A DNA stretch of 64,000 bases from positions 68,055 to 132,054 of IMG/VR virus record IMGVR_UViG_3300042731_008397; one strand, 5' to 3'. Under the pieces are notes generated by a model. That model saw nothing but the letters and a program-made list of their open reading frames with translations. It did not search any database and had not been told where the DNA came from. Of the stretch, positions 3,366 to 64,000 are shown piece by piece (position 1 is the stretch's first letter; each line of letters opens with the position of its first letter). The stretch is from a virus (Duplodnaviria > Caudoviricetes). A program made the position numbers and the translations under genes.

Positions 3366-4726
3366 AGATAACGGTGCAAGAAAACCCATTCTATCCCTTT
3401 AGGGATGGGAGGAATTGCGCCACGGGCGAAAGCCCGTCAAAAAAAGTGTTCTTTGAGATAAAAAAACCTTGACAATAATAAAAAGCTTTGTTTTTCTAGT
3501 AGCCATGATTCACAAAGCGTTTAAATACCGACTTTCACCAACACAAGCGCAACAAGAGGTTATTGCCAGGACGTTTGGGTGTTGTCGCTATGTGTATAAT
3601 TGGGGTCTGTCTGAGAAAGTGAAGGCGTATGAGCAGGAGAAACAGACGCTTTCCTGTGTTGATCTCATTAAGCGCCTAACGACCTTAAAACAAGAACTCC
3701 CCTGGTTGAAAGAGGTGTACTCGCAAGCATTACAGATGTCCTTACGGAATCTTGACAATGCCTTTACCCGGTTTTTTAAGAAGTTAGGCGGGTTTCCGAA
3801 GTTCAAGTCACGGAAGAATCATCACCAATCCTGTCAATTTCCACAGGGCGTCAAAGTCGATTTTGAGAAGAAGACGGTCTATCTGCCAAAAATAGGAGAT
3901 GTTCATCTAAAGATGCGAAAAAAAACGCATATCTTTGACGGAAAGATTAAAACTGTCACGTTACGGCAGACCCCCTCTGGGAAATATTTTGTCAGTCTCT
4001 TGGTGGAACTTGACCAGGAACTTCCGAAAAAACCACCAATTGAACTAAAGACAACCGTAGGCGTGGATATGGGAATTAAGACCTTTGTCACGTTGTCAAC
4101 GGGGGAAGAGATTGAGCATCCAAAGACCCTGAAGAAGTCATTAAAGACGTTAAAACGCTTACAGCGTCAACTCTCTCGAAAGCAGAAAGGCAGTCGCAAC
4201 CGGGACAAAGCCAGGAAACGATTGGCAAAATTACATGAACATGTCAGTAATCAGCGTGAAGATTTTTTGCATCAAGTCTCTCATCGGTTAACGAGTGAGA
4301 ACCAAGCTACAACGATAGCGATGGAAGACTTGCATATTGCTGGCATGGTGAAAAATCACAAACTGGCTCAGGCCATCATAGATAGCGCCTGGGGGATGTT
4401 TGACAACTTCGTGGCGTATAAATGTGACTGGCGTGGCAAGAACCATCTGCATATCCATCGGTTTGCCGCGAGCAGCCGGATTTGTTCGTTGTGTGGGTGG
4501 TATAATACTGAATTAACCCTAAAAGACCGTGTATGGACATGTGGCGGGTGCGGCGCAAAACGCCCCCGCGATCTCAATGCTGCGAAGAATATTCGCAAAT
4601 GGAGCGTCCATCCACAAAATATGGTAGGTCTGACATAACCGATGTTAAGCCTGGGGAGTGTTGCCGGTAGGTGACACGACGAACCAGGAAGGAATCCCAG
4701 GTGCTTCAGCCCTGGGAGGATGTCAA
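3366..4726 (+). mobile_element. IS200/IS605-family tnpB-only (IS1341-like) element 1
   Basis: TTAT at 3362-3365, left-end hairpin ~3385-3410, tnpB, right end GAAT-hairpin-GTCAA ending at 4726. Confidence 0.8.
3505..4638 (+). CDS. tnpB: RNA-guided endonuclease TnpB
   Basis: KAFKYRL HTH start; RuvC D (GVDMG), E (MEDL), D (RDLNAAKNI); CxxC..CxxC zinc finger; ATG at 3505 preferred. Confidence 0.95.
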   Translation: MIHKAFKYRLSPTQAQQEVIARTFGCCRYVYNWGLSEKVKAYEQEKQTLSCVDLIKRLTTLKQELPWLKEVYSQALQMSLRNLDNAFTRFFKKLGGFPKFKSRKNHHQSCQFPQGVKVDFEKKTVYLPKIGDVHLKMRKKTHIFDGKIKTVTLRQTPSGKYFVSLLVELDQELPKKPPIELKTTVGVDMGIKTFVTLSTGEEIEHPKTLKKSLKTLKRLQRQLSRKQKGSRNRDKARKRLAKLHEHVSNQREDFLHQVSHRLTSENQATTIAMEDLHIAGMVKNHKLAQAIIDSAWGMFDNFVAYKCDWRGKNHLHIHRFAASSRICSLCGWYNTELTLKDRVWTCGGCGAKRPRDLNAAKNIRKWSVHPQNMVGLT

Positions 4727-4745
4727 TAAAGGAGATTGCTTATGC
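4624..4745 (+). ncRNA. omegaRNA (reRNA) of element 1 plus flanking guide
   Basis: Overlaps tnpB 3' end; CCTGG/CCAGG stem, terminal hairpin, TCAA end. Confidence 0.7.
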
Positions 4746-7727: not shown

Positions 7728-9647
7728 ATGATTTTCTTGGAAGACAACATAGCGTTAGGATTACTGGATTCAATGCCAGATTATCGGATGTCCGCTTTAG
7801 ACCTTTCTCAGGGCGATCCAACATCCCGACAAGAACCAGCTTCGCCTGCCTCTTCTCAAACACAAGACCCGTCCGTAAGCTTGTCCAATGCCGTTGATGA
7901 AGGCGATTTAGCCGGACAATATTTACTGAATTGGTTTCGCGTTTTAAGTGCGGCAGAAGTTGTCAAACATTATTTCTTGTGCAAGTTAGTCATCGATTTT
8001 AGTGAGGACGGAGTTTTACAGAATGCCGTCCCTCTTGCTTTTGACGTGCCGATATATCCTAACCATGACCGTGATATTGCGGTCTGGCTCGGGAAGACAG
8101 TTCAGGCAAAATGGACGGAGAGCATTAATGAAAACCACATCCCCGGTATCACCGCTCACTTTCGGCAATGGACGGGATTAGATCAAAAAGGTAACCTCCG
8201 CTCCCAGTATAAATATGACATAGCCGAAGGGGTACGTCAAGGAGTAATTTCAAGAGTAAGTTCTGGACTGCTTTATCGTTTCCGGCGTTCTCACCCTGAT
8301 ATGGATGAAAGCATCTTTTATCGAATGATGGGAAAAGATATTGACGGAGAGAAGGTAAGACTAATTGCCACGGAGATTTTGAATTTTGTGGAGTTCTCTG
8401 AAGTGCAAATGGGCGCGGATAAATATGCAGAGAAAGAAAAAAATCTTGAAATGGAAATGGCTTCAGAGTTCAGTTATCCCGTTATTGCTACATTTAGTGG
8501 AAATGACGGCTATGAACTATTTATAAAAACAAGTATTCCAGGAGGCTATGAAATGGATCCAACAAAAGCAAAACTTGACCCGCAAGACGGAGATCAAGGG
8601 AAAGTTAATCTGGCGGTGTCCTTGAATTCAAAAGGTGTTGGTCATTGTCGGTCATTGATCAATACCGGGAAGTACAATACAACGGCTTCCTGGGAATTTA
8701 CGGCAGCCGATGGGAATAAACTATTAGGCGATAACAACGATTGGGCACGTTATGGAAAAATGTTTCTTGGGGTTGACCCTGACCAGGACGCGGAGACTAA
8801 AGGCCATTATAAATACCCATTCGGGAAATTAGACGGAAACGGGAATGAAGTCGTTTACCGTCAAGCTCTTATTGCCGCTACCGCCCGTGGAGCCCAACAA
8901 GGCGCAACTGAGATTTCTAATTCCGCCCGTGATTTACGGGAGGCTCTGGATAAAAAAGCCGGGATCTCTTCAGGCAAGTCAAAACAAGATAACTCGCTTG
9001 CCGGACAACCCGACGACCAACAATTCGGCAATCAGGAACCGGGTAGTGATCAAACTCCAAGTGATTCTACGCCTCCCCAGAATACGGGGACTAAATTGAC
9101 ATTGGAAGACGCCAAAGTTCAAATTGCGGAACTAAACGTAAAATTGACAGAGAGCCAGAGAGGATTTGATGGAATTTGCAAGAAGTATCAGGAGACGTTA
9201 GCCGCTATGGTCCGATTGGAACAACGAGCTACCGAATTGAAGGCGGAACGGGGTGCAAAGGATCAGGTCATTACTGCATTGAGGGAAGATGTTACTCGAT
9301 TGTCAGATGAGGCGGTCCAAAATGCCGGCCTTATCGCTTTAGGAAAACAATATCTTGCCGACTTGCGATCCGCAACGGAATTGGAGTATCTTAAATATTG
9401 TGATACCCTTAAAGAGATCCCGGACAAGTTAATCGGAGAAGAAGAAAAGGCGACTATGCTTGCCCGGATAAAAAACGAAACCACGGATGTTAACACGCTA
9501 CGGGAACTTTTAGCAACTTTCAGTATCCACAATCAGGCGATATTGACCGAAGGGCGGGATTCAATTCCTGGAAACGGCTCTTCTGTTAAACGATTTGTCC
9601 CGCCGCTGAAACTTGGAGAAAATTTCCGGTATCTTTACAGAAAATAA
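7728..9647 (+). CDS. Prohead protease/scaffold-like protein
   Basis: Upstream of the decoration and capsid genes; NHD and EFSEV..GAD motifs like HK97-type proteases; YKYPFG..VYRQALIAA segment; C-terminal coiled coil. Confidence 0.6.
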   Translation: MIFLEDNIALGLLDSMPDYRMSALDLSQGDPTSRQEPASPASSQTQDPSVSLSNAVDEGDLAGQYLLNWFRVLSAAEVVKHYFLCKLVIDFSEDGVLQNAVPLAFDVPIYPNHDRDIAVWLGKTVQAKWTESINENHIPGITAHFRQWTGLDQKGNLRSQYKYDIAEGVRQGVISRVSSGLLYRFRRSHPDMDESIFYRMMGKDIDGEKVRLIATEILNFVEFSEVQMGADKYAEKEKNLEMEMASEFSYPVIATFSGNDGYELFIKTSIPGGYEMDPTKAKLDPQDGDQGKVNLAVSLNSKGVGHCRSLINTGKYNTTASWEFTAADGNKLLGDNNDWARYGKMFLGVDPDQDAETKGHYKYPFGKLDGNGNEVVYRQALIAATARGAQQGATEISNSARDLREALDKKAGISSGKSKQDNSLAGQPDDQQFGNQEPGSDQTPSDSTPPQNTGTKLTLEDAKVQIAELNVKLTESQRGFDGICKKYQETLAAMVRLEQRATELKAERGAKDQVITALREDVTRLSDEAVQNAGLIALGKQYLADLRSATELEYLKYCDTLKEIPDKLIGEEEKATMLARIKNETTDVNTLRELLATFSIHNQAILTEGRDSIPGNGSSVKRFVPPLKLGENFRYLYRK

Positions 9648-9693
9648 CATCTATCTGACAATAACCGTTAACAGAGCAAAAAGGAGATAGGCT

Positions 9694-10095
9694 ATGTTAT
9701 TAGCAGACCAAGAAGTACAAGAACCAGGATTGGTTGTCCCGTTTCCTTGTAAGTCTACGTATACATCACCGGCTAAAGGTGACAAAGTAGAACTTACAGC
9801 AGACAATGAAGTAGCCCCTATTGCGGATGCGACTACTTCTAGTGCATACGTAGGCGAAGTGGAAACAATAAGTCCTGATGATACGGAAGTTCGAGTAAGG
9901 ACGCCATTCAGGAAAGTCATTACAGTATCATCTTACGCCGCTATTGCTAGTCCTGGATTAGGCGTTTGGGTTGGGCAGAAAGTTCGGTTGTATAATGATG
10001 GAGTGGATGTCAGTGGCTTAGCGATAGCTTCCCGAATGATGATTTTGGAAACAGCAACAGGTGCTGACGAAGATGTCCATATAGGTCTATATTAG
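9694..10095 (+). CDS. Capsid decoration/cement protein
   Basis: 133 aa beta-rich protein (KGDKVEL..YVGEV) between scaffold and capsid genes. Confidence 0.6.
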   Translation: MLLADQEVQEPGLVVPFPCKSTYTSPAKGDKVELTADNEVAPIADATTSSAYVGEVETISPDDTEVRVRTPFRKVITVSSYAAIASPGLGVWVGQKVRLYNDGVDVSGLAIASRMMILETATGADEDVHIGLY

Positions 10096-30774: not shown

Positions 30775-31977
30775 CTACCTCGCTAATTGACGGGTTGCTT
30801 CTAACAATTCCGTCTGTAAAGGTTTATATTTCGGGTGGTCTTTTGTGTATTGTTCCACTTGAGTCTCAATAGCGTCCTCAAGTGTAACCGTGACCGCCTG
30901 TTGCTCCGTGTCTCGGTGTAAAGGGGTTATTTCGACATGGGATATAAAATGAACACCTTTTTGTTTAAACAACTTAAAGATGGAAGAAAGCATCCCACGA
31001 ACTGCCATTATCCGGTCAGTGCGGATTTCAATTTTGACAATTGCCCTTTCAATATTGTAACTGAGTAAGGCAGTTTCGATTTTTTCAAGAGAGTCAATCC
31101 CTTCCATCGTAAAACAAAATTGATGAAACTCTCTTGCAGGGGATTCTATAAAATCATATTCTCCGAAATCTGTTCTTCGGAGAGTCACAAAAACCCCTCC
31201 TTTCGGGTCATTTCGTTCTCCAAACGTAACCCGTTCAAGTGTCCCTGAATATACTATTGGAGGCGTATTTGACACCCCAATAGAATGATCATTCCCGATA
31301 TTCTGGTATTTATGAATATGTCCCATTGCCACGTATTGGACTTCAGGAAATGTAAAAAGATGTCGAGGGACAACCGGCTCCGTTCGTCCTGGCATAGAGA
31401 GTCTTCTCTCTGTGCCTTCATAGGTAGCCCCCTCAATTCCAAAATGCCCTAAAAAGATTGTCGGAATGGTATCTAACCCTTGTAACAGCATTTGGATTGT
31501 CTCTGTGTATCCAGCCTCTAAATCTGGATATTGAGATGGCAGTAACCACGGAACAGCGATAACCCTTAAAGGCAAGCCTTTTTTTGTCTCTATAACCCTG
31601 CTACAGGGGGTTTTTAGAATGAATAGTGATTTGAAAGTAAATTCTCCTAATGCCTGAAGAAGGGAAATCCCTTGGGCACTATTAGGGAGATCATGATTCC
31701 CTGGTATCATGATAATAGGAATTTTTTCTTGTGTCACGGGTTGCAATGCCTGAGCTAACTTCGCTATATACACGGGCTCCATAGACCATGTGTGGCAAAT
31801 ATCTCCTGCAATAACCAAAGCGTCCATATCCCGTTCTAATCCGGTTTTAATTAGAAATGTCAAGCTGTTTAGGATGTCCTGAGTTCGTGAATGTATCCGA
31901 GTCACCGGATCAAAACGCCCGTGTGTTCTCATGTTCAGGTGAATATCGCCTAAATGTAGAAATTTTATAGTATCCAT
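30775..31977 (-). CDS. sbcD: SbcD/Mre11 nuclease
   Basis: DIHL, AGD, GNHD, GH and MGHIH metallophosphoesterase motifs. Confidence 0.92.
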   Translation of the reverse strand: MDTIKFLHLGDIHLNMRTHGRFDPVTRIHSRTQDILNSLTFLIKTGLERDMDALVIAGDICHTWSMEPVYIAKLAQALQPVTQEKIPIIMIPGNHDLPNSAQGISLLQALGEFTFKSLFILKTPCSRVIETKKGLPLRVIAVPWLLPSQYPDLEAGYTETIQMLLQGLDTIPTIFLGHFGIEGATYEGTERRLSMPGRTEPVVPRHLFTFPEVQYVAMGHIHKYQNIGNDHSIGVSNTPPIVYSGTLERVTFGERNDPKGGVFVTLRRTDFGEYDFIESPAREFHQFCFTMEGIDSLEKIETALLSYNIERAIVKIEIRTDRIMAVRGMLSSIFKLFKQKGVHFISHVEITPLHRDTEQQAVTVTLEDAIETQVEQYTKDHPKYKPLQTELLEATRQLAR

Positions 31978-32003
31978 TTTTCTCCTTTTTTAATTGCAGT
32001 CCT

Positions 32004-32157
32004 GTAAGGCTCCCCATCTTGTGGGGAGTACGGTTTCCTGGCTTAGGTGTAAGGGTGAAAGTGTCCGTAACTGGGAACGTCGTTGCGGAGTTCCAGTACT
32101 TACATCTATTTAGCACGTCCTCAGAACCGGGTATCTCCCGGTTAAAGCTGAGGTAAG
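32004..32157 (-). ncRNA. Structured RNA family B, copy 1 (IscB/IsrB omegaRNA-like)
   Basis: CCTCAG..CTGAGG ACGTGC; TAGATGTAAG/CTTACACCTA stem; loop GACGTTCCCA; CAGGAAACC; CTCCCCACAAGATGGGGAG CCTTAC. Confidence 0.75.
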
Positions 32158-32382
32158 CGTCCATTTAGATACAATGATTTGATCTGTGAAAGTTCCGGTT
32201 TCAGAGAAAGGTTGGGTTTGAGTGCATCTGAATTGATCCCGACTTTCGGGTGGATCGCTACAAATACCATATTCTCCACTGATGTCCCGGCAATTTTCTT
32301 CTAATAAGAAAAAATATAACAGGAAAAAGCCTATTACAGGTTTTCCTTCTGGTGTTGTTTCGATTAATTCTTGTAAGGTCAT
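32110..32382 (-). CDS. Hypothetical protein
   Basis: AAGGAG RBS and upstream TTGACA; 3' end runs into RNA copy 1. Confidence 0.4.
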   Translation of the reverse strand: MTLQELIETTPEGKPVIGFFLLYFFLLEENCRDISGEYGICSDPPESRDQFRCTQTQPFSETGTFTDQIIVSKWTLTSALTGRYPVLRTC

Positions 32383-32460
32383 CTCTTCTCCTTATAAAAC
32401 AAATATGATAATGTCAAGACATTTTTTCTGAGTAGTCAACATAAATAGCGAAAAAGCCCG

Positions 32461-32655
32461 TTAGACAAAGCCTTTTTCCTCTGCTAACCATCGAGGAAGT
32501 TTAATGGTTGTTACTTCGCCCGTCATTATATCGGACTCATCAAATTCAATTTGGCTTATCGGCAACCATATCTCTTCATCCCCGTAAGCAACGAGGATCG
32601 CCATATCGGTAGCTTGTATTATATCACCTTCGATTTCTACTATTTCTTCTGCCAT
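32461..32655 (-). CDS. Small acidic phage protein
   Basis: ATDMAILV..GDEEIWLPISQI..LPRWLAEEKG, a common phage-type motif. Confidence 0.65.
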   Translation of the reverse strand: MAEEIVEIEGDIIQATDMAILVAYGDEEIWLPISQIEFDESDIMTGEVTTIKLPRWLAEEKGFV

Positions 32656-32661
32656 TACCCG

Positions 32662-32958
32662 TTATAAGAGGCTCATTTGGACTCCCTGAATTCCAAATCT
32701 TGACGGATTCTCTAAAATCATCCAAAATGTAATTAGAACCGCACGGATTTTGAGGAGTTCACGGTCTCTTTCCAGTTTTGACCGCTCTAAGGCATCATTG
32801 ACTAGCTTTTCGATATAACGGTCACCTGCCCGAGGATCAAGTTCATGGATACGTCTTGCAAACTCAGCCGCCCCAGGTATCGGCGGTTGATCTAACCGCA
32901 TTATAAACCAGGGGTCATACTTCTCCAAGATTACCCGTTGTAAGGGGGTCATTGTCAT
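32662..32958 (-). CDS. Hypothetical protein
   Basis: In an operon; ends QMSLL. Confidence 0.5.
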   Translation of the reverse strand: MTMTPLQRVILEKYDPWFIMRLDQPPIPGAAEFARRIHELDPRAGDRYIEKLVNDALERSKLERDRELLKIRAVLITFWMILENPSRFGIQGVQMSLL

Positions 32959-33035
32959 TAGTGTTATTCCAAATAATGTAAATGCTCCAATTCTTCGGCT
33001 TCTTTTTTACTTTCCGGGTGTTCTTTTGCCAGAGC

Positions 33036-33275
33036 CTAGGCAATCTTCTGTAACCACGGGTCATGAATGTCTAATTGATCGGCAATCCATTCGTATTTGC
33101 CCGGATCACGGAGTACCTCAAGGACGATATTCAAACATAATTCAAGGTCTTCTCTGTCTAACCCGTCAGGCAAAAGAACTGACCGGTCATAATCATCTTT
33201 TGGGACAAGTTGAACCATCCCGTCATACGGAGAGGAAAGTTCAATCGGAATAATGCTTATCGGTTGTTTTAGCAT
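33036..33275 (-). CDS. Hypothetical protein
   Basis: GAGG RBS. Confidence 0.5.
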   Translation of the reverse strand: MLKQPISIIPIELSSPYDGMVQLVPKDDYDRSVLLPDGLDREDLELCLNIVLEVLRDPGKYEWIADQLDIHDPWLQKIA

Positions 33276-33302
33276 AAATAGTTCCTCTTGTTGTTGTTAA
33301 TA

Positions 33303-33402
33303 TTGTCAAATTTCGATTGTAAGACGTTGGAACGTCAATCCCTATACCTATAGGGGTTATGTCCCAAAGTCCTCATGTGGCGTCTCTCAGAGCGCCAGAG
33401 TG
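33303..33402 (-). repeat. Dispersed element A, copy 3
   Basis: Minus strand ctctggcgctctgagagacgcc...cccctataggtatagggattgacgttcc...ttacaatcgaaatttgaca. Confidence 0.85.
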
Positions 33403-33407
33403 TTAAA

Positions 33408-33632
33408 TTATTTGTATGCCGTGCCTGCTTTCCAATTTAGCATCAAAGCCACGTTAAAGATACGTTCAGCCTGATATTTCACGTTTTTAGGTAAATCATC
33501 CCATGCCCATTCTTGGATTTTATGCTTTTTTAGGGCACATCCACGGGCAAGAGACACTTTCGGGCCTGAAAGAATACATTTTATAACAAGTGCCCGTTGC
33601 CAAGTCTCCATGATGTTCCAAAGTTCTTTCAC
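33408..33632 (-). CDS. Hypothetical protein
   Basis: Overlaps the sbcC stop. Confidence 0.45.
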   Translation of the reverse strand: MKELWNIMETWQRALVIKCILSGPKVSLARGCALKKHKIQEWAWDDLPKNVKYQAERIFNVALMLNWKAGTAYK

Positions 33633-36238
33633 GTTATGACGGCTAATGTTGAGCCTTCGCCTGGAATCTTGTTTACTTCAATCCTCGCGGGGAATTGCTC
33701 TTTTAGTTCCTCTATATGGGTGATAACAATGATTTTTAAGAAGTCTTCAGCCAGATCATATATTGCCCTTAAAAAATTCTCCCGTCCTTCGGCGTCTTGA
33801 CTGCCAAATCCTTCGTCAATAACAAGCACTTTTAACGGAAGCCCGGTATGTCGTTTACAAAGTAATTGCGCCAGTCCTACCCGGATGGCAAAGTTGATCC
33901 GGAACTGTTCTCCGCCCGAAAATAACTCATAAGGCTGTTCAAACCCTCCGTACTGGCACATAATTTCTAACAGTTCAACCGTGTTACCTGAACCCGTTTC
34001 ATATTCGGTTTTGAAATAGATAGCCGCGCCTCTCAAGAGACGTTGAAGGATGTCGTTTACTTCTTTCTCAAACTCTGGTAACGCTGTTGTTGTTAACCAT
34101 GCGGGGATTCCGTCTCTTCCAAAAATCTCTTGTAGGTATGCAAAGACCTGGACATTCTTTTCTAATCGGGCAATTTCCACAGAAAGCTCCGCAAGTGTGT
34201 TCATAAGCTCCTCTTGACGGGTTGTTAATGCTTCTTTTTGCCCAACACGGCGTTGTAGCATATCACAAGATTGTTGCCAACTCTGGACTGACCGGGTGAT
34301 TTCATCCAAATGACGGGTATCTTGCTGCAAGGTTTCAATTTTTTGTCTCAGGTCTTCCCGTTCTTTGGTCAACCTTTCAATCTTCAGTAAAAGATCACCA
34401 ATACGCTGTTCTTCCTGCTCACAAATTGGCGTAAGGGTTTCAACGCCCGATTTGGCGACGGTTAGCTGTTCATATAAAACATTATTGTTTTGTAATTCCT
34501 TATCTCCGAGTAACACTCGGATTCTTTCGTGTTCCTCGGCATCATATTCAGGAAGGACCAACTTATTCAGTTTTTCCTCAAGAGATTCTTTGTATTCTCC
34601 CGTCTTAAGGAGCGTTTGCAGTTTCTCATAACGCTGTCTTTTGACACTTATACTTGCCTGAAGGTATGTTATATCTTCTGTAACCGATGTTAAGCGTTCC
34701 GCTATTCGGGTTAATTCAACCTGTGTATCCCGTACCACGTCAAGAGTCTGTTCTATTTCGGCATGTCTTGTATTTAGCTCCGGTTGTTTGCTTTTTATTG
34801 CCATGTTTGCCTCTGCAAACTTCCTTGATTTCTCTTTTTCCCGAATAAGTTCTATAAGAAGCCGTTTAAACGCTTCTTCAGAGAGAGGTTGACTACAAAG
34901 CGGGCACTCTGCCGTTCCTTCCGGGGCTTCTTCAAGAAATTTTATCTTTTTGTTTAATTCTTGCTCTTGGGTTAACAACCGCTTTGTCTCCTCGCTACGG
35001 GCATTGTCTTCCGAAAAAGCCTCTCGGAGGTCTTTTTCGCAAATTACCCGTTGCTCTTCCAATTCAATTATTCTCTGTTCAACCTTTATACGGGAGCTTA
35101 ACCGCTCTTCAAGTTCAGTTTTTTCTTTTTGCTTCTCTTCTAACTGTAAGGTTTCCGTTTCAAGGGCTTCCTGGGTTGTTTTTAAGTCTTTTTCAAGATT
35201 TCGTTTAAGCTCCTCTATGCGGGTCAAGATGACCTTTTGTTCAGAGCTTATCCGTAAAAACTCCTGGTAAACCTGATCGATGGATGACGCCTTTATCCGG
35301 GCTTCTTCATAAACCGTATGCGCCTTGACAACCTCTTCTTCCTTTTTAAGAATTTCATGGTATTGTTGGATTGTTTCTTTATGGGCATTTAATGACCGAT
35401 CGAGGGATATTTTTGTCTCTTCTACCCCCGTAACCTCTTGTGAGATGGTTGTGATCCGTTCTTTTGCCTTATTAAGCTCTATTTCCTGAGCTTTTAGTTT
35501 TTGAAGAGTCTCTTTTTCATGCTCTAATCGGGCTTTGGCGACCCCTAAGTCTTTTTCAACATCTTTAAGTTCCTTCAAGTCTTCCGTTACCTGTTCTAAA
35601 GCTGCCGTACTTTGGGAAAAGTGATACTGTAAGCCTCCCAACTTCCCCGCAAATTGGTCATGTTCCTGCTTTGCTTTTCTACTGAGGACTTTAAATCTCT
35701 CCAATCCGATTACTTCATGAAATATTTCCTTTCTTTGGGCTGGACGGGCTTCTGTAAATCTTCCGGCATTATTTTGTTTTAAAAAGACCGAGGAAACGAA
35801 GGTTTCAAATCTCATCCCCACTATTCGGGTGATCTCTTCCTGTGTTCCTTTATTTGTTTTCCCCGTTAATGACCGAAATTTGGGGGAAATTTGTTCAAAA
35901 GTGATTTTCATTGTACTTTTATCCAGATCATGTGAAGAAGATAGATAAAGTTCCCGATAGACGGTGAATGTGCTATTGTTTTTGTCAAGTAACCGGAATG
36001 TAAATTCAACCGAGCACGATCTGGTACCATGCCGGATCACCCCAGTTCCTGGGGTAGCCTTTCGCCCTGCTTTCCGTGCTTGTCCCCAAATTGCCCAGGT
36101 TAAGGCGTCAAGTAATGAGGATTTTCCATTTCCGTTCTGTCCCGAAAGGCAAATTAAATGCAGTTCCTCGAAATTGATTTCCGGGACATCTTCGCCGTAA
36201 CATAAAAAATTACTTACTTTCAATGTTACTGGTATCAT
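33629..36238 (-). CDS. sbcC: SbcC/Rad50 SMC-type ATPase
   Basis: GQNGNGKSS, Q-loop, coiled coils, CPLC hook, FSGGE, IDEGFGSQD, ITH. Confidence 0.95.
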   Translation of the reverse strand: MIPVTLKVSNFLCYGEDVPEINFEELHLICLSGQNGNGKSSLLDALTWAIWGQARKAGRKATPGTGVIRHGTRSCSVEFTFRLLDKNNSTFTVYRELYLSSSHDLDKSTMKITFEQISPKFRSLTGKTNKGTQEEITRIVGMRFETFVSSVFLKQNNAGRFTEARPAQRKEIFHEVIGLERFKVLSRKAKQEHDQFAGKLGGLQYHFSQSTAALEQVTEDLKELKDVEKDLGVAKARLEHEKETLQKLKAQEIELNKAKERITTISQEVTGVEETKISLDRSLNAHKETIQQYHEILKKEEEVVKAHTVYEEARIKASSIDQVYQEFLRISSEQKVILTRIEELKRNLEKDLKTTQEALETETLQLEEKQKEKTELEERLSSRIKVEQRIIELEEQRVICEKDLREAFSEDNARSEETKRLLTQEQELNKKIKFLEEAPEGTAECPLCSQPLSEEAFKRLLIELIREKEKSRKFAEANMAIKSKQPELNTRHAEIEQTLDVVRDTQVELTRIAERLTSVTEDITYLQASISVKRQRYEKLQTLLKTGEYKESLEEKLNKLVLPEYDAEEHERIRVLLGDKELQNNNVLYEQLTVAKSGVETLTPICEQEEQRIGDLLLKIERLTKEREDLRQKIETLQQDTRHLDEITRSVQSWQQSCDMLQRRVGQKEALTTRQEELMNTLAELSVEIARLEKNVQVFAYLQEIFGRDGIPAWLTTTALPEFEKEVNDILQRLLRGAAIYFKTEYETGSGNTVELLEIMCQYGGFEQPYELFSGGEQFRINFAIRVGLAQLLCKRHTGLPLKVLVIDEGFGSQDAEGRENFLRAIYDLAEDFLKIIVITHIEELKEQFPARIEVNKIPGEGSTLAVIT

Positions 36239-36455
36239 TGTCTTCTCTTCCCGTTAGCCGGTCAATAAATGCCATTGCTTTTGTAATCGCTTCTGACCGT
36301 TGCGCGGGCAGTCCTATTATAAACCGATATTGTTTTCTCACAAAATACCCGTCTTTTGCAGGTTCTCTGACCTGAATTGTTGCCGTTTTTTTCCGTCCTT
36401 TTCCTGCTTTTCCATGCCCCTCCGATTGGGCAATGTCATATCCTTTGTATCGCAT
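36210..36455 (-). CDS. Small basic hypothetical protein
   Basis: 81 aa upstream of sbcC. Confidence 0.5.
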   Translation of the reverse strand: MRYKGYDIAQSEGHGKAGKGRKKTATIQVREPAKDGYFVRKQYRFIIGLPAQRSEAITKAMAFIDRLTGREDNDTSNIESK

Positions 36456-36596
36456 CTTTCAATTTCCTTCAGAAATCTCTGAAAGCGTTTGGAGGAAGGC
36501 GCGAGCCTCCCTCGCTGGACGTGAAATGCGCCACATAGCCGGTCAACATTTCTGCCTTCCGGGTACTTTTTCTTTGAGTCAACACCGTATCCAGGA

Positions 36597-37343
36597 TTAA
36601 CTATTGTACTGTATTACCGGGACATAACCTTCTTTAGCCTGCCAGAGTCCTAATTGTACGGGCCTTTCCTGCGTTACTGGCTCACGCGGTTTTTGGTAAT
36701 GAGGACAATCAATATTCCCGATTTTTGACTCACATTCGGCGCATAACCGCCATTGACGGTCTTTATCCTCCCACGCGGTTTTTTCGACCTGTTCACCGCC
36801 TGGGCATAGAACCGTCTCCCGATATTTCGGGCACGGATCGGGATATTCGGTAAAATATTCCGGATCGCCGCACTCTTTGAGGTCTTCATTCCAACAAAGG
36901 CATGTATGGCATTTGTCAAGCGGATACTTGTAAAGATAAACAACATCATCCGCCCCGGCTTGAAAAAATTCAACCAGCCATTGTTCTCCGTGTAAGTAAC
37001 GGACATATCCAGAGTTTTCTTCTATATCATACCACGATATTTCAATATAGTAAACTCCCGATTCAAGGCTGGTTTTTTCAATGCTGCCTTTCCATAAGTT
37101 CTCTTTTGTCTCCATCACGGCAAAAGGAGCTAACACTTCCCGAACAAGGCGATTCCGCTCCTCTTGAAAATTATAGCCCGGAGCGGCATATACCATTTTA
37201 GGGATCGGGAAAGGCCCTCCTTTCCCTTTTACCAATGTCCCATTACGGACATATTTGTTTAAAAGTCGTTTCTCTTCTTTCGATAACTGCCCAATGTCGG
37301 TTATAGATTTAGCAATAGCTCTTTGAATTAATTTTGGCGACAT
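36597..37343 (-). CDS. Cys-rich hypothetical protein
   Basis: CHTC, CAEC and further Cys clusters. Confidence 0.55.
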   Translation of the reverse strand: MSPKLIQRAIAKSITDIGQLSKEEKRLLNKYVRNGTLVKGKGGPFPIPKMVYAAPGYNFQEERNRLVREVLAPFAVMETKENLWKGSIEKTSLESGVYYIEISWYDIEENSGYVRYLHGEQWLVEFFQAGADDVVYLYKYPLDKCHTCLCWNEDLKECGDPEYFTEYPDPCPKYRETVLCPGGEQVEKTAWEDKDRQWRLCAECESKIGNIDCPHYQKPREPVTQERPVQLGLWQAKEGYVPVIQYNS

Positions 37344-37360
37344 TATTATATTTTTCTCTT

Positions 37361-37511
37361 GAAAAGCTCCCTATCTTGTAGGGAGTACCGGTTCCCTGAC
37401 CTGGGTACAGGGGTGACAGAGTTTACAAGTGGGAACGTCCTCATAAAGTGTCGTTACCTATATCCATGTGGCACGTCTTTATCCCCACCCGTTAGGCGAA
37501 CATAAAGTAAG
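37361..37511 (-). ncRNA. Structured RNA family B, copy 2
   Basis: CTTTAT..ATAAAG ACGTGC; TGGATATAGG/CCTGTACCCA; GACGTTCCCA loop; CAGGGAACC; CTCCCTACAAGATAGGGAG. Confidence 0.78.
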
Positions 37512-37900
37512 TATAGTCTTTAAAAAACTTCATATCTTATAACTTGCCCAGTTTCAGGGGCTTTTGAGTACCTTTTTTCAGAGCGAATTTAAAAAACTTG
37601 AAAACTACAATTTCCCCGGTTTCAGGGAGTTTTACTTTTTATGTTTATAAGATGTTAAGTTTTTTGAATATAGTCTTTAAAAAACTTAACATCTTACAAC
37701 ATCCCCATCTTCAGGGAGATTAGAGCATGTTTTTTGTATAAGTTTTCAAATTTTTTGACCCTATATATTTCTTTTTAAAATTTCTCTTTAAGAGAAATAA
37801 TATTAAATATATCATTCAAAAAACTTAAAAACTATGGCTAAAATCTTCTGAGTCTGACTGATTAACGGGACTTCTGTAAGATGTTAAGTTTTTTGAATTC
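37512..37900. repeat. Iteron-like repeat cluster, putative replication origin
   Basis: About seven copies in both orientations of TT(T/C)AAAAAACTT(A/C/G)A.A.CT; three T(T/C)TTCAGGG boxes; very AT-rich segment 37760-37830; near the initiator-like gene. Confidence 0.7.
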
Positions 37901-37980
37901 TTATAGTGAATTTTCACGTCAAATTCCTGACTTTGCCCTATTAGCAGCCGCTTTCTCGGAATTCAAATAATTTGAATTCC

Positions 37981-38340
37981 CTAAAAACTCCCGCTATACA
38001 GTCGGCAAGAGTTTAATCGGTTGAATTTTTTCATAACAATATTTTCAGAGAGCCCATACCTTGTTTCTAATCGGGCAATAGCCGCTCTTATTCGGTCCAT
38101 CTCATTGTTAGTCCGGTGAAATGCTGCCCAGTTCATGGTCTCCTGGATGACCTTACCTTTCCCTCCGTCTTCATATTCAGCTTGACCCCATAGATAATCG
38201 AGGTACTGACTTAACTGTTCCCATCTTTCGGCTTTTTTGACCAATCGTTTTTCTTCAGGAGACAGTCCTTTATAAGTAATCTTTAGTCGCCGTGTCCGGA
38301 TCTGGTCTTCTCTGATATTTGCTTTTAAATACTTTTGCAT
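37981..38340 (-). CDS. Hypothetical protein
   Basis: 119 aa ORF. Confidence 0.5.
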   Translation of the reverse strand: MQKYLKANIREDQIRTRRLKITYKGLSPEEKRLVKKAERWEQLSQYLDYLWGQAEYEDGGKGKVIQETMNWAAFHRTNNEMDRIRAAIARLETRYGLSENIVMKKFNRLNSCRLYSGSF

Positions 38341-38354
38341 AGTTTCTAAAAAAT

Positions 38355-38454
38355 ACTCTCTGGCACTCTGAGAGACGCCGTATGGCTCTTTCTCTCATAA
38401 TCCCCTATGAGTATAGGGATTGACATTCCGACTGCTTACAATCGAAATTTGGCA
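38355..38454 (+). repeat. Dispersed element A, copy 4
   Basis: ctctctggcactctgagagacgcc...cccctatgagtatagggattgacattccgactgcttacaatcgaaatttggca. Confidence 0.85.
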
Positions 38455-38456
38455 CG

Positions 38457-39164
38457 TTATGAGACGTTTTCGGTTTTATGTAGCTTAACCAGCACAGGCC
38501 CCATAAGGCTAATAACGTCATCGGATTTCCATTCAGAAAGTTCCCATTCTCTTGTTAAGTCTTGCCGGGTTTCTTGATCACCTCCTGAAGCCCGTAACAA
38601 GAGTTGTTGCAATAATGATGGCTGATCTGGATGTTCGCTAAACCACTGTATAGCGGGCGTCAACTCGTTTCTTCTCCATTCTTTCCAATCAAATTGAGGA
38701 GATGTTTGTACCGGAGCCCCAGTATGCGGTAAAGGAATAACCGGAGTAGTAGAGGATGTTGGACGTAATTTGATTTCTTGTATGATTGCGGTTTCTTCTT
38801 TTTGGCATATAAGGGCGGTCAGCGGCAGAAGATTAACCCGAAAATGCCGCCGTGTGGCGAATTGACGTTTTAATGCTCGAACCTCTCTGAAAAGTACCGT
38901 CTCCGGGATCTTTTCCAACGTTTTTTGTTGCTGGTAATATGAGAGAAGAGTGTCCTTCTCCATTTGTGGAACGGTTTTCCAAAATGTTCCGTCAGGCTGA
39001 AGTTGACCAGCTAAAATAAAGTAAATCTGTTGACTTGTTAAATAGAGCATAATCCGGTCTGCCGGTGTCCCCCAAACTGCCGTAAGACGGTAAAGGACAA
39101 TCCAAGTATCTCTCGGAATAATATCGAAAAACATTGGAGCTATTAAAGAATTGACATCTTCCAT
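38457..39164 (-). CDS. Putative replication initiator (N-terminal winged HTH)
   Basis: FWKTVPQMEKDTLLSYYQQQKTL...RRHFRVN resembles phage initiator wHTH domains; iterons nearby. Confidence 0.55.
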   Translation of the reverse strand: MEDVNSLIAPMFFDIIPRDTWIVLYRLTAVWGTPADRIMLYLTSQQIYFILAGQLQPDGTFWKTVPQMEKDTLLSYYQQQKTLEKIPETVLFREVRALKRQFATRRHFRVNLLPLTALICQKEETAIIQEIKLRPTSSTTPVIPLPHTGAPVQTSPQFDWKEWRRNELTPAIQWFSEHPDQPSLLQQLLLRASGGDQETRQDLTREWELSEWKSDDVISLMGPVLVKLHKTENVS

Positions 39165-39391
39165 AGAATTTACTTGACAAGAAGATACCTATAGGAGATA
39201 GTTGGCAATACTTCATATAGGCATTTCTGGTTAGTTGTCTTTTCTTAGGTGACTTGTGTACGGGACAAGTCACCTAAGCGAAATTCCTCAATCGTTTGTT
39301 ATTTCAAAAACCTTCGTTTCAAATTCTTTGTTGATCGGGATCTTAACATAGCTTATTTGCCGTGTGTCAGTACTCGGTGACACCCTTCCCT

Positions 39392-39536
39392 GTAAGGCTC
39401 CCCATCTTGTGGGGAGTGTCGGTTCCCTGACGTCGGTGTTGGGGTGGCAGGGCCTGCAAGTGGGAACGTCCTCGCAGGGTGTCGGTACCAACATCGGTGC
39501 CGCACGTCCTTATAACGAAGTCATTAATAAGGTAGA
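39392..39536 (-). ncRNA. Structured RNA family B, copy 3
   Basis: CCTTAT..ATAAGG ACGTGC; CGATGTTGG/CCAACACCG; CCTGC/GCAGG; same loop, GGGAAC and terminal hairpin. Confidence 0.78.
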
Positions 39537-39553
39537 GTGATACGAATTTTTAC

Positions 39554-39582
39554 ACTCTAAAAAAGTGGTAAAGAATTGTCAA
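39554..39582 (-). promoter_or_regulatory. Sigma70 promoter driving RNA B copy 3 and rep
   Basis: TTGACA-17-TAGAGT. Confidence 0.55.
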
Positions 39583-39668
39583 GAATTTTTTTAAACGCTT
39601 TACTATTCAGAGAAAGGGCGGACTCCGCCCTTTGACAAACACACGGGCATTTTAATAAAAAAAATAGC

Positions 39669-39696
39669 TTGACATTTTCAAATATTATTTTATGAT
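39669..39696 (+). promoter_or_regulatory. Sigma70 promoter driving RNA B copy 4 and the parM operon
   Basis: TTGACA-16-TATGAT. Confidence 0.6.
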
Positions 39697-39717
39697 AGTT
39701 TTTATGATAAAATAATA

Positions 39718-39897
39718 GTCGCTTCACTGTTGTACGGGTGTAGGAGGTTGCACTTCTTTAAGACCGCCCGTGTCGGCGTGAAGACGCGCCAGATGGATAT
39801 AAGTAACGGCACCTTATGAGGACATTCCCACTTGTAAGCTCTGTCACCCTTATACCCAGGTCAGGGAACCGTACTCCCCACAAGATGGGGAGATTGC
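39718..39897 (+). ncRNA. Structured RNA family B, copy 4
   Basis: CTTCAC..GTGAAG ACGCGC; TGGATATAAG/CTTATACCCA; GACATTCCCA; CAGGGAACC; CTCCCCACAAGATGGGGAG. Confidence 0.78.
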
Positions 39898-39944
39898 TGT
39901 AATCACAAACCATGTATTAACCCCGAAAAAAGGAGTACACACGT

Positions 39945-40271
39945 ATGTCAAAAGTAACCACAAATCGAATTACGAAAGACCAGATTTTGGGCTTTCATTC
40001 CACGCTTGTTATGACCATTGCCGCTCTAATTAAACAACGGTCAAACATCAATGCTGAACCGCTGTTTAGTCCCCCGCCTAAAGGGAAAGAAGAAGAAAAT
40101 AAACCGACAACAAAAGAACTGGGGCAGCGGCATGAAATTGACCTCAATACGGCATTTGCGTCGATCCATGCTGAACAGAAAAGGGCACAGCTTACCGTAT
40201 TGGACGCAAAAGTTGACGTATTAACCGATGTATTAACCCAATTTGAGGAAGCATTTGGAGTTGAAAGATAA
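39945..40271 (+). CDS. Hypothetical protein
   Basis: AAGGAG RBS. Confidence 0.6.
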   Translation: MSKVTTNRITKDQILGFHSTLVMTIAALIKQRSNINAEPLFSPPPKGKEEENKPTTKELGQRHEIDLNTAFASIHAEQKRAQLTVLDAKVDVLTDVLTQFEEAFGVER

Positions 40272-40308
40272 TCCAAGATGCTTCTCTTTCCCAGTAAAAG
40301 GAGACCCT

Positions 40309-41376
40309 ATGTTACCAAACAAAAAAATTTCTGTCGGGTTGGATCTTGGAGGAATGTCAACCAAAATAGTGCTTTCTGAAAAAGCCGGGACAATTGATAA
40401 ACATTACCATTTGTCGGCTACTAAGGCGATATTAGACCAGAAAGATCATTTTAAACTCTTTGCAGACCAGCCGTTTACGTTAGACCTTCCACATAAACGC
40501 CATTTCAGCCAGTTAGCGGCATTGATCAAAGGTTGTACCTATTCTTTGGATTCTCTTTCAACCCCGGATTCTCCACATACGGAAACGCTTGTTATCGGGT
40601 CTATTCTGCATGGACTATCACCTGAGATAACAGAGGCTATAATTTATCTGACCGTGGGAATCCCGGAAGGCAAAGATGAAATCGGAAAAGGATTTGTCCA
40701 GCATTATCGAGGTAAACACATTACGGGCAAACTCAAAGGTCGTCCTGAAGTCAATTTGGTGTTTAAATATATAGACTGGGATTACCAAGCTATTTGGGGA
40801 GTCCTGGGAAAATCTTTGTCATATTCCCCAAATGGCAGCATTGACGAAGATGAAGAAGTCGGAGAATCCCATTATGTGGTCATAGATGGAGGATCAGCGC
40901 AAATCAAAGTTTGCGAAGTCTTGCCGGGTTATGTTCTTGGCCCCCATGATTCGGAAGAAAACGGAACATGGACATATTTGAAAGAACTCCGGCGAATCCT
41001 TCAATCGGTTCATAAAGGGAAATATTTACCATTTACCGTTATGCAAGCCCTGACGAAGGGCGAATTGACTACAGGAAATGATAACTACCCCGTTGCCAAG
41101 AATTTCAAGCCGATCATTGAGGAATATTGCGCCGGGGTTGTCAATCTTGTCCGTAATACGGTTTCTGACTGGACAAATATTCGGAAAGTTTTCATTATGG
41201 GCGGTATGGCAGAATTTCTACTCCCAGTCATCCGAAATACATACGGGCCTGATGTCGGTGAGGATCATATTGTTATCATCTCAGATGACCCGATTTTCTT
41301 TATGGCACAAAGCATGGAGATTTCCTCCCGATATGAGATACTGTATGGTGAGGAGTCAGGACATGCCGATTCATAA
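40309..41376 (+). CDS. parM: ParM/StbA-like actin ATPase
   Basis: VGLDLGG..TK, LTVGIP, VVIDGGS, FIMGGMA actin-fold motifs. Confidence 0.8.
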   Translation: MLPNKKISVGLDLGGMSTKIVLSEKAGTIDKHYHLSATKAILDQKDHFKLFADQPFTLDLPHKRHFSQLAALIKGCTYSLDSLSTPDSPHTETLVIGSILHGLSPEITEAIIYLTVGIPEGKDEIGKGFVQHYRGKHITGKLKGRPEVNLVFKYIDWDYQAIWGVLGKSLSYSPNGSIDEDEEVGESHYVVIDGGSAQIKVCEVLPGYVLGPHDSEENGTWTYLKELRRILQSVHKGKYLPFTVMQALTKGELTTGNDNYPVAKNFKPIIEEYCAGVVNLVRNTVSDWTNIRKVFIMGGMAEFLLPVIRNTYGPDVGEDHIVIISDDPIFFMAQSMEISSRYEILYGEESGHADS

Positions 41377-41809
41377 AACAATCTCATTTATTGAGGATAC
41401 GCCCGAAAATGAACGAATCTTGGAGTTTGTTAAAACCGGAGAATGGAAAACCCATCAACATTCCGGGAATTTCTCTGTGTTTATCAGACAACTTATTTGG
41501 GAACGGTTTTTCTCACAAGACGGGTTAGCCAAAGACTTGATCTTATTTCAACAGATACTTGCCCGGAATAAACGGTTTTTGGGGGCGTTTGAAGCGATCT
41601 TGGTAGCAGCGGGCGGACAGCCCGCTGTGATTCTACCGCCGTCTCCGCCCAATATGGCAGAAAAGGCATTAGAAATAGCGGCTAAGACTGGTACAGACCT
41701 TCCGGTAACTGAAATTTCATCTAATCCGCATGGGCAGGTTGGAGAAAAGGAAGTTAAACAAAAGCCAGTTAAAGCCTTACAACGGCGTAAAAGGAAAAAA
41801 GATGAGTGA
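41363..41809 (+). CDS. ParR-like adaptor
   Basis: Overlaps the parM end; KTISF...NFSVFIRQLI RHH-like N-terminus, disordered tail. Confidence 0.6.
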   Translation: MPIHKTISFIEDTPENERILEFVKTGEWKTHQHSGNFSVFIRQLIWERFFSQDGLAKDLILFQQILARNKRFLGAFEAILVAAGGQPAVILPPSPPNMAEKALEIAAKTGTDLPVTEISSNPHGQVGEKEVKQKPVKALQRRKRKKDE

Positions 41810-63864: not shown

Positions 63865-63932
63865 CCGAAGGCATTAAAACTTGATCAATCGGGAGTACCT
63901 GGGCACTTTCCGTATTATATCCGAAAGAGATA

Positions 63933-64000
63933 TTGACATCCTCCCAGGGCTGAAGCACCTGGGATTCCTTCCTGGTTCGTCGTGTCACCTACCGGCAACA
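63933..64000 (-). mobile_element. Right end/omegaRNA of a second copy of element 1 (continues beyond the window)
   Basis: 68 nt identical by eye to the reverse complement of 4659-4726. Confidence 0.88.

Follow-up and report, generated by a model that had tools for sequence, protein, structure and literature searches.

A repeat cluster beside one copy of an eight-copy structured RNA is a candidate replication origin in an orphan 132-kb phage

Introduction

In phage lambda, the replication operon runs from the initiator gene to ori and then to the next gene, and activation of the origin by transcription or an R-loop is known for both lambda ori and T4 oriF. RNA primers or R-loops also act at the origins of ColE1 (RNA II) and T4 (oriF and oriG), in each case without a separate guide-plus-scaffold design. 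In RNA-guided systems of the TnpB and Cas12f type, the guide is located 3' of the scaffold, not 5'. Structured RNAs are also found as cis-acting leaders, which include riboswitches, protein-binding translational operators and processive antitermination RNAs (put, EAR). Repeat arrays are typical of centromeres as well, and the known parC sites lie directly upstream of parM. In phage SPP1, the protein gp38 binds repeats and an AT-rich unwinding element at two origins, oriL and oriR, the latter being located among the late genes (PMC6316719).

The DNA analysed here is a stretch of 64,000 nt (the window), taken from a linear IMG/VR record of 132,054 bp of which it forms the right half (68055-132054); CheckV estimates that the record is 95% complete. 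Positions are those of the window unless they are given as genome positions or with an L prefix. The record encodes portal, gpA-type terminase and tail proteins, a DnaB-like helicase, a DnaG-type primase and SbcCD, as well as a ParM-like actin, a 7-deazaguanine gene set and five tnpB genes. We describe a repeat cluster and a neighbouring gene that provide a candidate origin and a candidate initiator for this orphan 132-kb phage lineage, with a two-locus repeat layout that resembles that of SPP1, and the structured RNA (RNA B), one copy of which abuts the cluster.

A repeat cluster at the edge of RNA B copy 2

The 19 nt directly 5' of RNA B copy 2 (TATAGTCTTTAAAAAACTT on the plus strand, AAGTTTTTTAAAGACTATA on the minus strand) are present exactly at 37512-37530 and 37669-37687. 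Allowing up to 2 mismatches, this 19-mer has two matches in the 64,000-nt window and none in 100 shuffles; the exact repeat reported in a first-pass annotation of this DNA is therefore real. In the 637-nt intergenic gap, the longest exact repeat is 22 nt, compared with at most 14 nt in 500 simulations. The likeness extends on the side away from RNA B, with 79% identity over 67 nt between 37512-37578 and 37669-37735, and the three ~67-nt direct units of the cluster also contain CCCnnnnnnCAGGG.

A 21-nt core, TAAGATRTKAAGTTTTTTRAA, recurs across the cluster. Four perfect matches were identified in the window (0.08 expected), at 37519-37539 (-), 37648-37668 (+), 37676-37696 (-) and 37877-37897 (+), and three weaker copies are located at 37588-37599 (-), 37739-37759 (+) and 37815-37835 (-). 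The stretch 37519-37897 thus contains seven core sites (four perfect and three weaker), in both orientations and at an irregular spacing of 28-76 nt, which is consistent with the about five other related repeats claimed previously. From the whole genome, with up to 5 mismatches, eight occurrences of the core were retrieved, i.e. six in this cluster and two at genome 39977-40065.

The 19-mer beside RNA B copy 2 (37512..37530) is composed of 12 nt of the 21-nt core and the 7-nt sequence TATAGTC. At the second exact copy (37669..37687), TATAGTC is the spacer of a palindrome whose 24-nt arms (37645-37668 and 37676-37699) are 92% complementary; at the first copy, RNA B copy 2 occupies the place of the other arm. 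The first helix of copy 2, in which CUUUAU (37507-37502) pairs with AUAAAG (37482-37477), begins 4 nt past the end of the repeat. The repeat identity does end at the RNA boundary, as had been proposed, because the array ends where the leader of the next gene starts. The 19-mer is most likely part of a protein-binding double-stranded DNA repeat (21-nt core and 7-nt flank) that forms the left edge of the cluster. Weak microRNA-type Rfam rows at 37639-37704 were rejected, as they are matches to the palindrome that fall far under the gathering scores.

The whole cluster (37512..37900), with its seven core sites in both orientations, is AT-rich: its GC content is 26-33%, with a trough of 18% at 37750-37849, compared with 43% (43.1%) for the genome. 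Two hallmarks of an iteron-type origin are therefore found here, namely clustered ~20-bp sites in a non-coding stretch and an adjacent AT-rich stretch, and the cluster is a candidate replication origin. The GC skew tracks the orientation of the genes and shows no sign of an origin.

A candidate initiator upstream of the cluster

In the same operon, 0.8 kb upstream of the cluster, a 235-aa ORF (38457..39164, minus strand) encodes a protein with an N-terminal winged helix, which is a candidate iteron-binding initiator. No direct family match was found for this protein in PHROG or Pfam, and a word-based homologue search returned only the protein itself. A HMMER search against 1.84 billion proteins retrieved 12 distant homologues (E 5.8e-6 to 8.8e-4), aligned to query residues ~10-142. 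Of the 13 aligned members, 12 gave matches to phrog_9773 ('replication initiation O-like', best 3.8e-64), and these cover this same N-terminal region; further initiator or DnaD-like families are matched by most members as well. When the alignment was compared with Pfam and with PDB sequences, nothing informative emerged. As the 235-aa protein has no family match of its own, its link to O-like initiators is transitive: judged from these 12 homologues, it is a candidate distant relative of the phage lambda-O-like replication initiators.

The AlphaFold model of the protein (mean pLDDT 62.7, high over residues 31-90) is a winged helix. Its best fold match is the Crp/Fnr DNA-binding domain (Z 8.5, rmsd 3.0 over 92 residues), and the RepA_N initiator 4pta is matched with Z 6.2; these fold matches are of the generic winged-helix kind. 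A Foldseek search with the model retrieved nothing at E <=0.001.

Between the initiator-like gene and the cluster lies a 119-aa ORF (37981..38340, minus strand) with no family match, and a perfect AT-rich palindrome, GGAATTCAAAT-TA-TTTGAATTCC (37958-37980), stands directly after its stop codon. Downstream of RNA B copy 2, a 248-aa Cys-rich ORF (36597..37343, minus strand) could be assigned to no family in Pfam, PHROG or NCBIfam, these searches found no nuclease domain in it, and the ESM Atlas gave no usable match. The short motif LS(K/P)EEKRL is common to the 248-aa and 119-aa ORFs. In an unrelated viral contig, a 64-aa ORF (L011:5965-6159) next to a terminase gene has 54% identity with residues 1-45 of the 248-aa ORF.

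A second pair of core sites near the terminase genes

The two other core units lie in a repeat-rich, gene-poor stretch of 1.3-1.8 kb beside the terminase genes (L001:3533-4898; genome ~39.5-40.9 kb). This stretch also contains a 47-nt repeat in two copies, runs of TTTATCATA and a tandem array of ACCAGAACACATGTGTCTTATT (22 bp, five to six copies); a second origin, a centromere and a packaging/late-control region are all possible roles for it. The core at genome ~39,980 overlaps the -35 element of a promoter-like sequence, TTGAAT-18-TACAAT, that faces the terminase genes, so that an operator role fits equally well at this second locus.

This overlap bears on the reading of the cluster as an operator/promoter array, in which the 21-nt sites would bind a transcription regulator (possibly the 235-aa protein) controlling the gene of copy 2 and the late/terminase promoter. 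Besides the core that provides the -35 element, the palindrome at 37645-37699 resembles a dimer operator, and the 235-aa protein has its best fold matches among Crp/Fnr and MarR-type regulators. However, the 12 homologues of this protein all belong to replication-initiator PHROGs, a search of the cluster revealed no promoter-like site directed towards copy 2, and seven sites around a stretch of 18% GC exceed the usual need of an operator. We therefore regard an operator array as rather unlikely.

Partition is another function served by repeats, and the phage carries a ParM-like actin (40243-41376; phrog_691 'partition protein', E 2.8e-12). Its gene is preceded by a 108-aa ORF and followed by a possible small basic-tailed ORF; the whole segment (39945-41809) resembles a type II partition module and hints at a plasmid-like prophage state. 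The repeats of the cluster might then be parC-like sites of this system. Against this, a distance of 2 kb, with the initiator-like operon in between, separates the cluster from the ParM operon, which it does not directly precede, and the 22-bp tandem palindromes at genome ~40.3 kb are more centromere-like. We give a centromere at the cluster quite little credence.

RNA B and its gene context

RNA B is a structured element of ~150 nt, present in exactly eight copies in the 132,054-bp record (eight BLAST matches), and a covariance model retained eight matches (E <=4e-38) among the 10 candidates scored. Four copies are in the window. Copy 1 (c1; 31995..32153, minus strand) lies between a 90-aa ORF and an SbcD-like gene whose ATG is 17 nt past the model end; copy 2 (c2; 37352..37507, minus strand) leads the 248-aa ORF, with the ATG 8 nt past the model 3' end; copy 3 (c3; 39383..39532, minus strand) leads the operon containing the initiator-like gene; and copy 4 (c4; 39757..39907, plus strand) leads the 108-aa ORF and the ParM-like gene. 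The copies g1-g4 are in the left half of the genome (L001:6084-6233 on the plus strand; L002:2698-2847, 8531-8674 and 9666-9816 on the minus strand). The copies are 71-89% identical.

The fold comprises a variable 5' hairpin (P1), a long bent hairpin, a conserved 3' hairpin and a possible pseudoknot. Across the copies, the 37 proposed pairs are 95.6% paired, compared with 87.9 +/- 1.1 in shuffles (none of 500 reached the observed value), and pairing drops to 23-46% when the partners are slid; changes on both sides were observed in 13 pairs. The candidate pseudoknot, between the loop GUUCCC and the linker GGGAAC, is 93.8% paired with zero compensatory change, and we put it forward as a possibility. 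The conservation of G-U pairs indicates that the functional strand is the gene-sense strand. The conserved 3' tail, GCCUUACAGGR, is followed by start codons, and its ACAGGR can serve as a Shine-Dalgarno sequence (g2, g3 and c3). When copy 2 was folded with its 5' flank, z was -1.1 and the 19 nt took part in no informative pairing. No Rfam family matched the whole window at the gathering score; with E up to 5, eight weak matches were obtained in 31900-40100, none of them on a copy of RNA B, and ARAGORN found no tRNA or tmRNA. RNA B is thus an uncatalogued eight-copy structured RNA with strong covariation.

All eight copies are in the sense orientation relative to their flanking genes. A candidate start codon is located between -1 and +37 nt from the model 3' end in seven of the eight, and at +56 or +213 for g1. 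The downstream genes are different from one copy to another (SbcD-like, the 248-aa ORF, the 108-aa/ParM-like pair, small ORFs, PIG-L). The best explanation is that RNA B is a cis-acting mRNA leader or intercistronic element that precedes unrelated genes. The copy g2 overlaps the stop codon of QueD and ends at the ATG of a 69-aa ORF; genes of the 7-deazaguanine pathway (QueC, QueF-like, FolE, QueE-like and QueD-like) are located at L030:8933-10019 and L002:1244-3244.

Strong sigma-70-like promoters were found at c3 (TTGACA-17-TAGAGT, 39582..39554) and c4 (TTGACA-16-TATGAT, 39669..39696) only; by reading, the leader from promoter to P1 would be ~15 nt at c3 and ~54 nt at c4. A GC hairpin, AAAGGGCGGACTCCGCCCTTT (39608-39632), lies between these divergent promoters. 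For copy 2, no sigma-70-like promoter was found on the minus strand in 37512-37980. In the absence of such a promoter in the cluster, the copy-2 transcript probably crosses the repeats by read-through, and iteron sequence may therefore occur in the RNA. The strong promoter at 39582..39554 faces the cluster with no U-tract terminator between them, and the order of the operon resembles that of lambda. Read-through transcripts into copy 2 might thus form an R-loop or activate the origin transcriptionally without any protein partner, a role that would be compatible with a leader at an origin. Nothing links it to the 19-mer or to RNA B specifically, and we consider it improbable. RNA B copy 2 is best read as the leader of the gene that follows it (36597-37343), located at the edge of the origin. 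This corresponds to the fallback offered in the first-pass annotation, that the element merely lies at the origin edge, which we adopt as our conclusion.

The 5' flank as a guide

The main proposal made for this locus was different: the 19 nt would serve as the 5' guide of an RNP directed at the origin of the phage itself, in order to control copy number, to prime replication through an R-loop or to exclude related replicons. The flank of c2 matches the cluster exactly and has a 20/20-nt match at the second locus, and the phage does possess RNA-guided proteins (five TnpB genes and a Cas12f/TnpB-like gene with a CRISPR array). Yet this c2 match runs 48 nt past any guide length, as a DNA repeat unit. 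When the 30-nt 5' flanks of the eight copies were compared with the genome, only those of c2 and g1 (2/8) had non-self matches of at least 18 nt, the former inside the 67-nt repeat unit and the latter inside a 44-nt exact inverted repeat. Moreover, four of the eight copies (g2, g3, g4 and c1) follow an ORF of 90-323 aa whose end falls in the range from 35 nt before the RNA B core to 12 nt into it, so that the supposed guide position is coding sequence there. The predicted distances from promoter to P1, unequal at c3 and c4, also argue against a guide of fixed place.

No effector gene is adjacent to RNA B: the nearest TnpB/Cas12-like gene is 1,970 to 13,716 nt from the copies, and no nuclease family was found in the ORFs downstream of the eight copies. 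RNA B is also unlike the 3' ends of the resident TnpB genes and the CRISPR repeat. In a BLAST of the RNA B copies against all tnpB flanks, the only match was a 16-nt repeat of the g1 flank, and on the genome the covariance model retrieved the eight RNA B copies only, without matching the resident omega-RNAs. The reading of RNA B as a TnpB omega-RNA or a stand-alone omega-RNA (IS200/IS605) was rejected, the resident TnpB right ends finishing in ...GTCAA and RNA B ending in GCCUUACAGGR. A transposon-derived element of the PATE/IS608 type, suggested by the CTTAC/YTAC 5' of P1 and the CCTTAC near the 3' end, was ruled out, since RNA B has no TCAA right end, the sequence of P1 varies and all copies are in sense. 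A signal for priming on single-stranded DNA was rejected as well: transcription fits the orientation of all eight copies, a single origin near 39.6 kb fits seven of eight, and the G-U pairs favour RNA.

The g1 flank has surroundings of its own. The arms of the 44-nt inverted repeat (L001:6034-6077 and 9249-9292; genome 42033-42076 and 45248-45291) enclose g1 together with genes for a PIG-L-type protein, a serine recombinase and TnpB; one arm stops 6 nt before g1, and the other lies between two convergent tnpB genes.

A literature search for iterons together with a guide RNA and a replication origin in phage found no natural system, and a motif-based search returned known RNA-discovery papers only. 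The guide idea, if true, would represent a new kind of RNA-guided self-regulation of replication, and the evidence points away from it. With half of the flanks coding, no nuclease gene within 1.9 kb and matches that belong to longer DNA repeats, we hold a guide role to be extremely improbable. The claim that the putative guide is an origin iteron has therefore to be divided: its origin part gains indirect support from the candidate O-like initiator gene 0.8 kb upstream, from the repeats in both orientations around the 18% GC stretch and from the second locus, and its guide part is not supported.

We also considered a bolder scheme, in which an iteron-tailed RNA would be processed from origin read-out at copy 2 and would pair as an R-loop or titrate the O-like initiator. 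Firing would then be tied to the downstream recombination/replication genes, and RNA B would be a new pseudoknotted class of cis-acting RNA. This scheme seems to us very improbable.

Genome setting and relatives

In addition to its tnpB genes, the phage carries a mini CRISPR system outside the window (L029:5640-8454; genome 24640-27454). It consists of a 611-aa TnpB/Cas12f-like protein (NCBIfam guided_TnpB, E 1.5e-29), then nine copies of a 37-nt repeat with eight spacers of 34-38 nt, and none of these eight spacers has a match in the genome of the phage itself. The record terminates in 70 nt (63931-64000 of the window) that are the exact reverse complement of 4659-4728, a segment just downstream of the tnpB gene at 3469-4638 (omega-RNA/right end), which makes it probable that the assembly breaks off within a further copy of this tnpB element.

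Relatives of the phage and of RNA B were searched for in several ways. A blastn search against the phage collection found no relatives, a tblastn search with the primase gave nothing above 38% identity, and three DNA patterns had no match in viral contigs. The pattern matches obtained in metagenomes (10) and in genomes (3) were all rejected by the covariance model. Searches seeded with proteins (the 248-aa ORF, SbcC and primase) retrieved four loci, none of them with RNA B. The phage occurs at wetland and marsh sites, and four sequencing runs (X2-X5) contain related strains. The contigs of these runs that aligned to 36000-40500 were short pieces, with joints (e.g. 37310 to 39389) whose sides are <30 nt; at the 80% likeness used, pieces from paralogous copies or from the second locus can also align to this region.

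Discussion

We hold, with some reserve, that origin-type DNA sites abutting an ordinary leader are the probable explanation of this locus. The cluster would be the phage replication origin, bound as double-stranded DNA by the O-like winged-helix protein (38457-39164). The second pair of sites, 65 kb away in the late region, may be a second origin, a fork site or a regulatory site. RNA B copy 2 would be the leader of 36597-37343, the repeat and leader modules touching each other without the repeat being a guide. The results establish the repeat and its cluster, the RNA B family with its covariation, the context of its copies and the chain of homology that leads to O-like initiators; we infer from them that the initiator binds the sites, that replication starts here and where the transcripts end.

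RNA B can be compared with the guide RNAs of nucleases, i.e. the IscB omega-RNA and the Cas9 sgRNA (5' guide) and the TnpB omega-RNA, stand-alone copies included (3' guide). It is similar to them by its ~150-nt scaffold, its possible pseudoknot, its several copies and its presence in a TnpB-rich phage. In contrast to them, it has neither an adjacent effector nor a TCAA-type transposon right end, it is unlike the 3' ends of the resident TnpB genes, and its eight copies are all in sense just upstream of start codons. In addition, the 71-89% identity between copies, with compensatory changes, differs from that of near-identical recent insertions. With cis-acting leaders, RNA B shares position, orientation, covariation and a possible Shine-Dalgarno tail (ACAGGR), but it occurs as eight copies before functionally unrelated genes in one genome and has no match in Rfam. 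The locus resembles ColE1 RNA II and T4 oriF/oriG in that a transcript runs through or beside a (candidate) origin.

In contrast to the lambda and SPP1 origins, the sites are here located downstream of the initiator-like gene and not inside it, and they have a mixed orientation and an irregular spacing; the cluster is a candidate origin only. It shares with SPP1 oriL and oriR (PMC6316719) and with lambda ori and its O protein the repeated sites of 19-22 bp and the AT-rich stretch, and a candidate O-like initiator gene is nearby; as described for SPP1 oriR, the late region contains a further locus that carries these sites.
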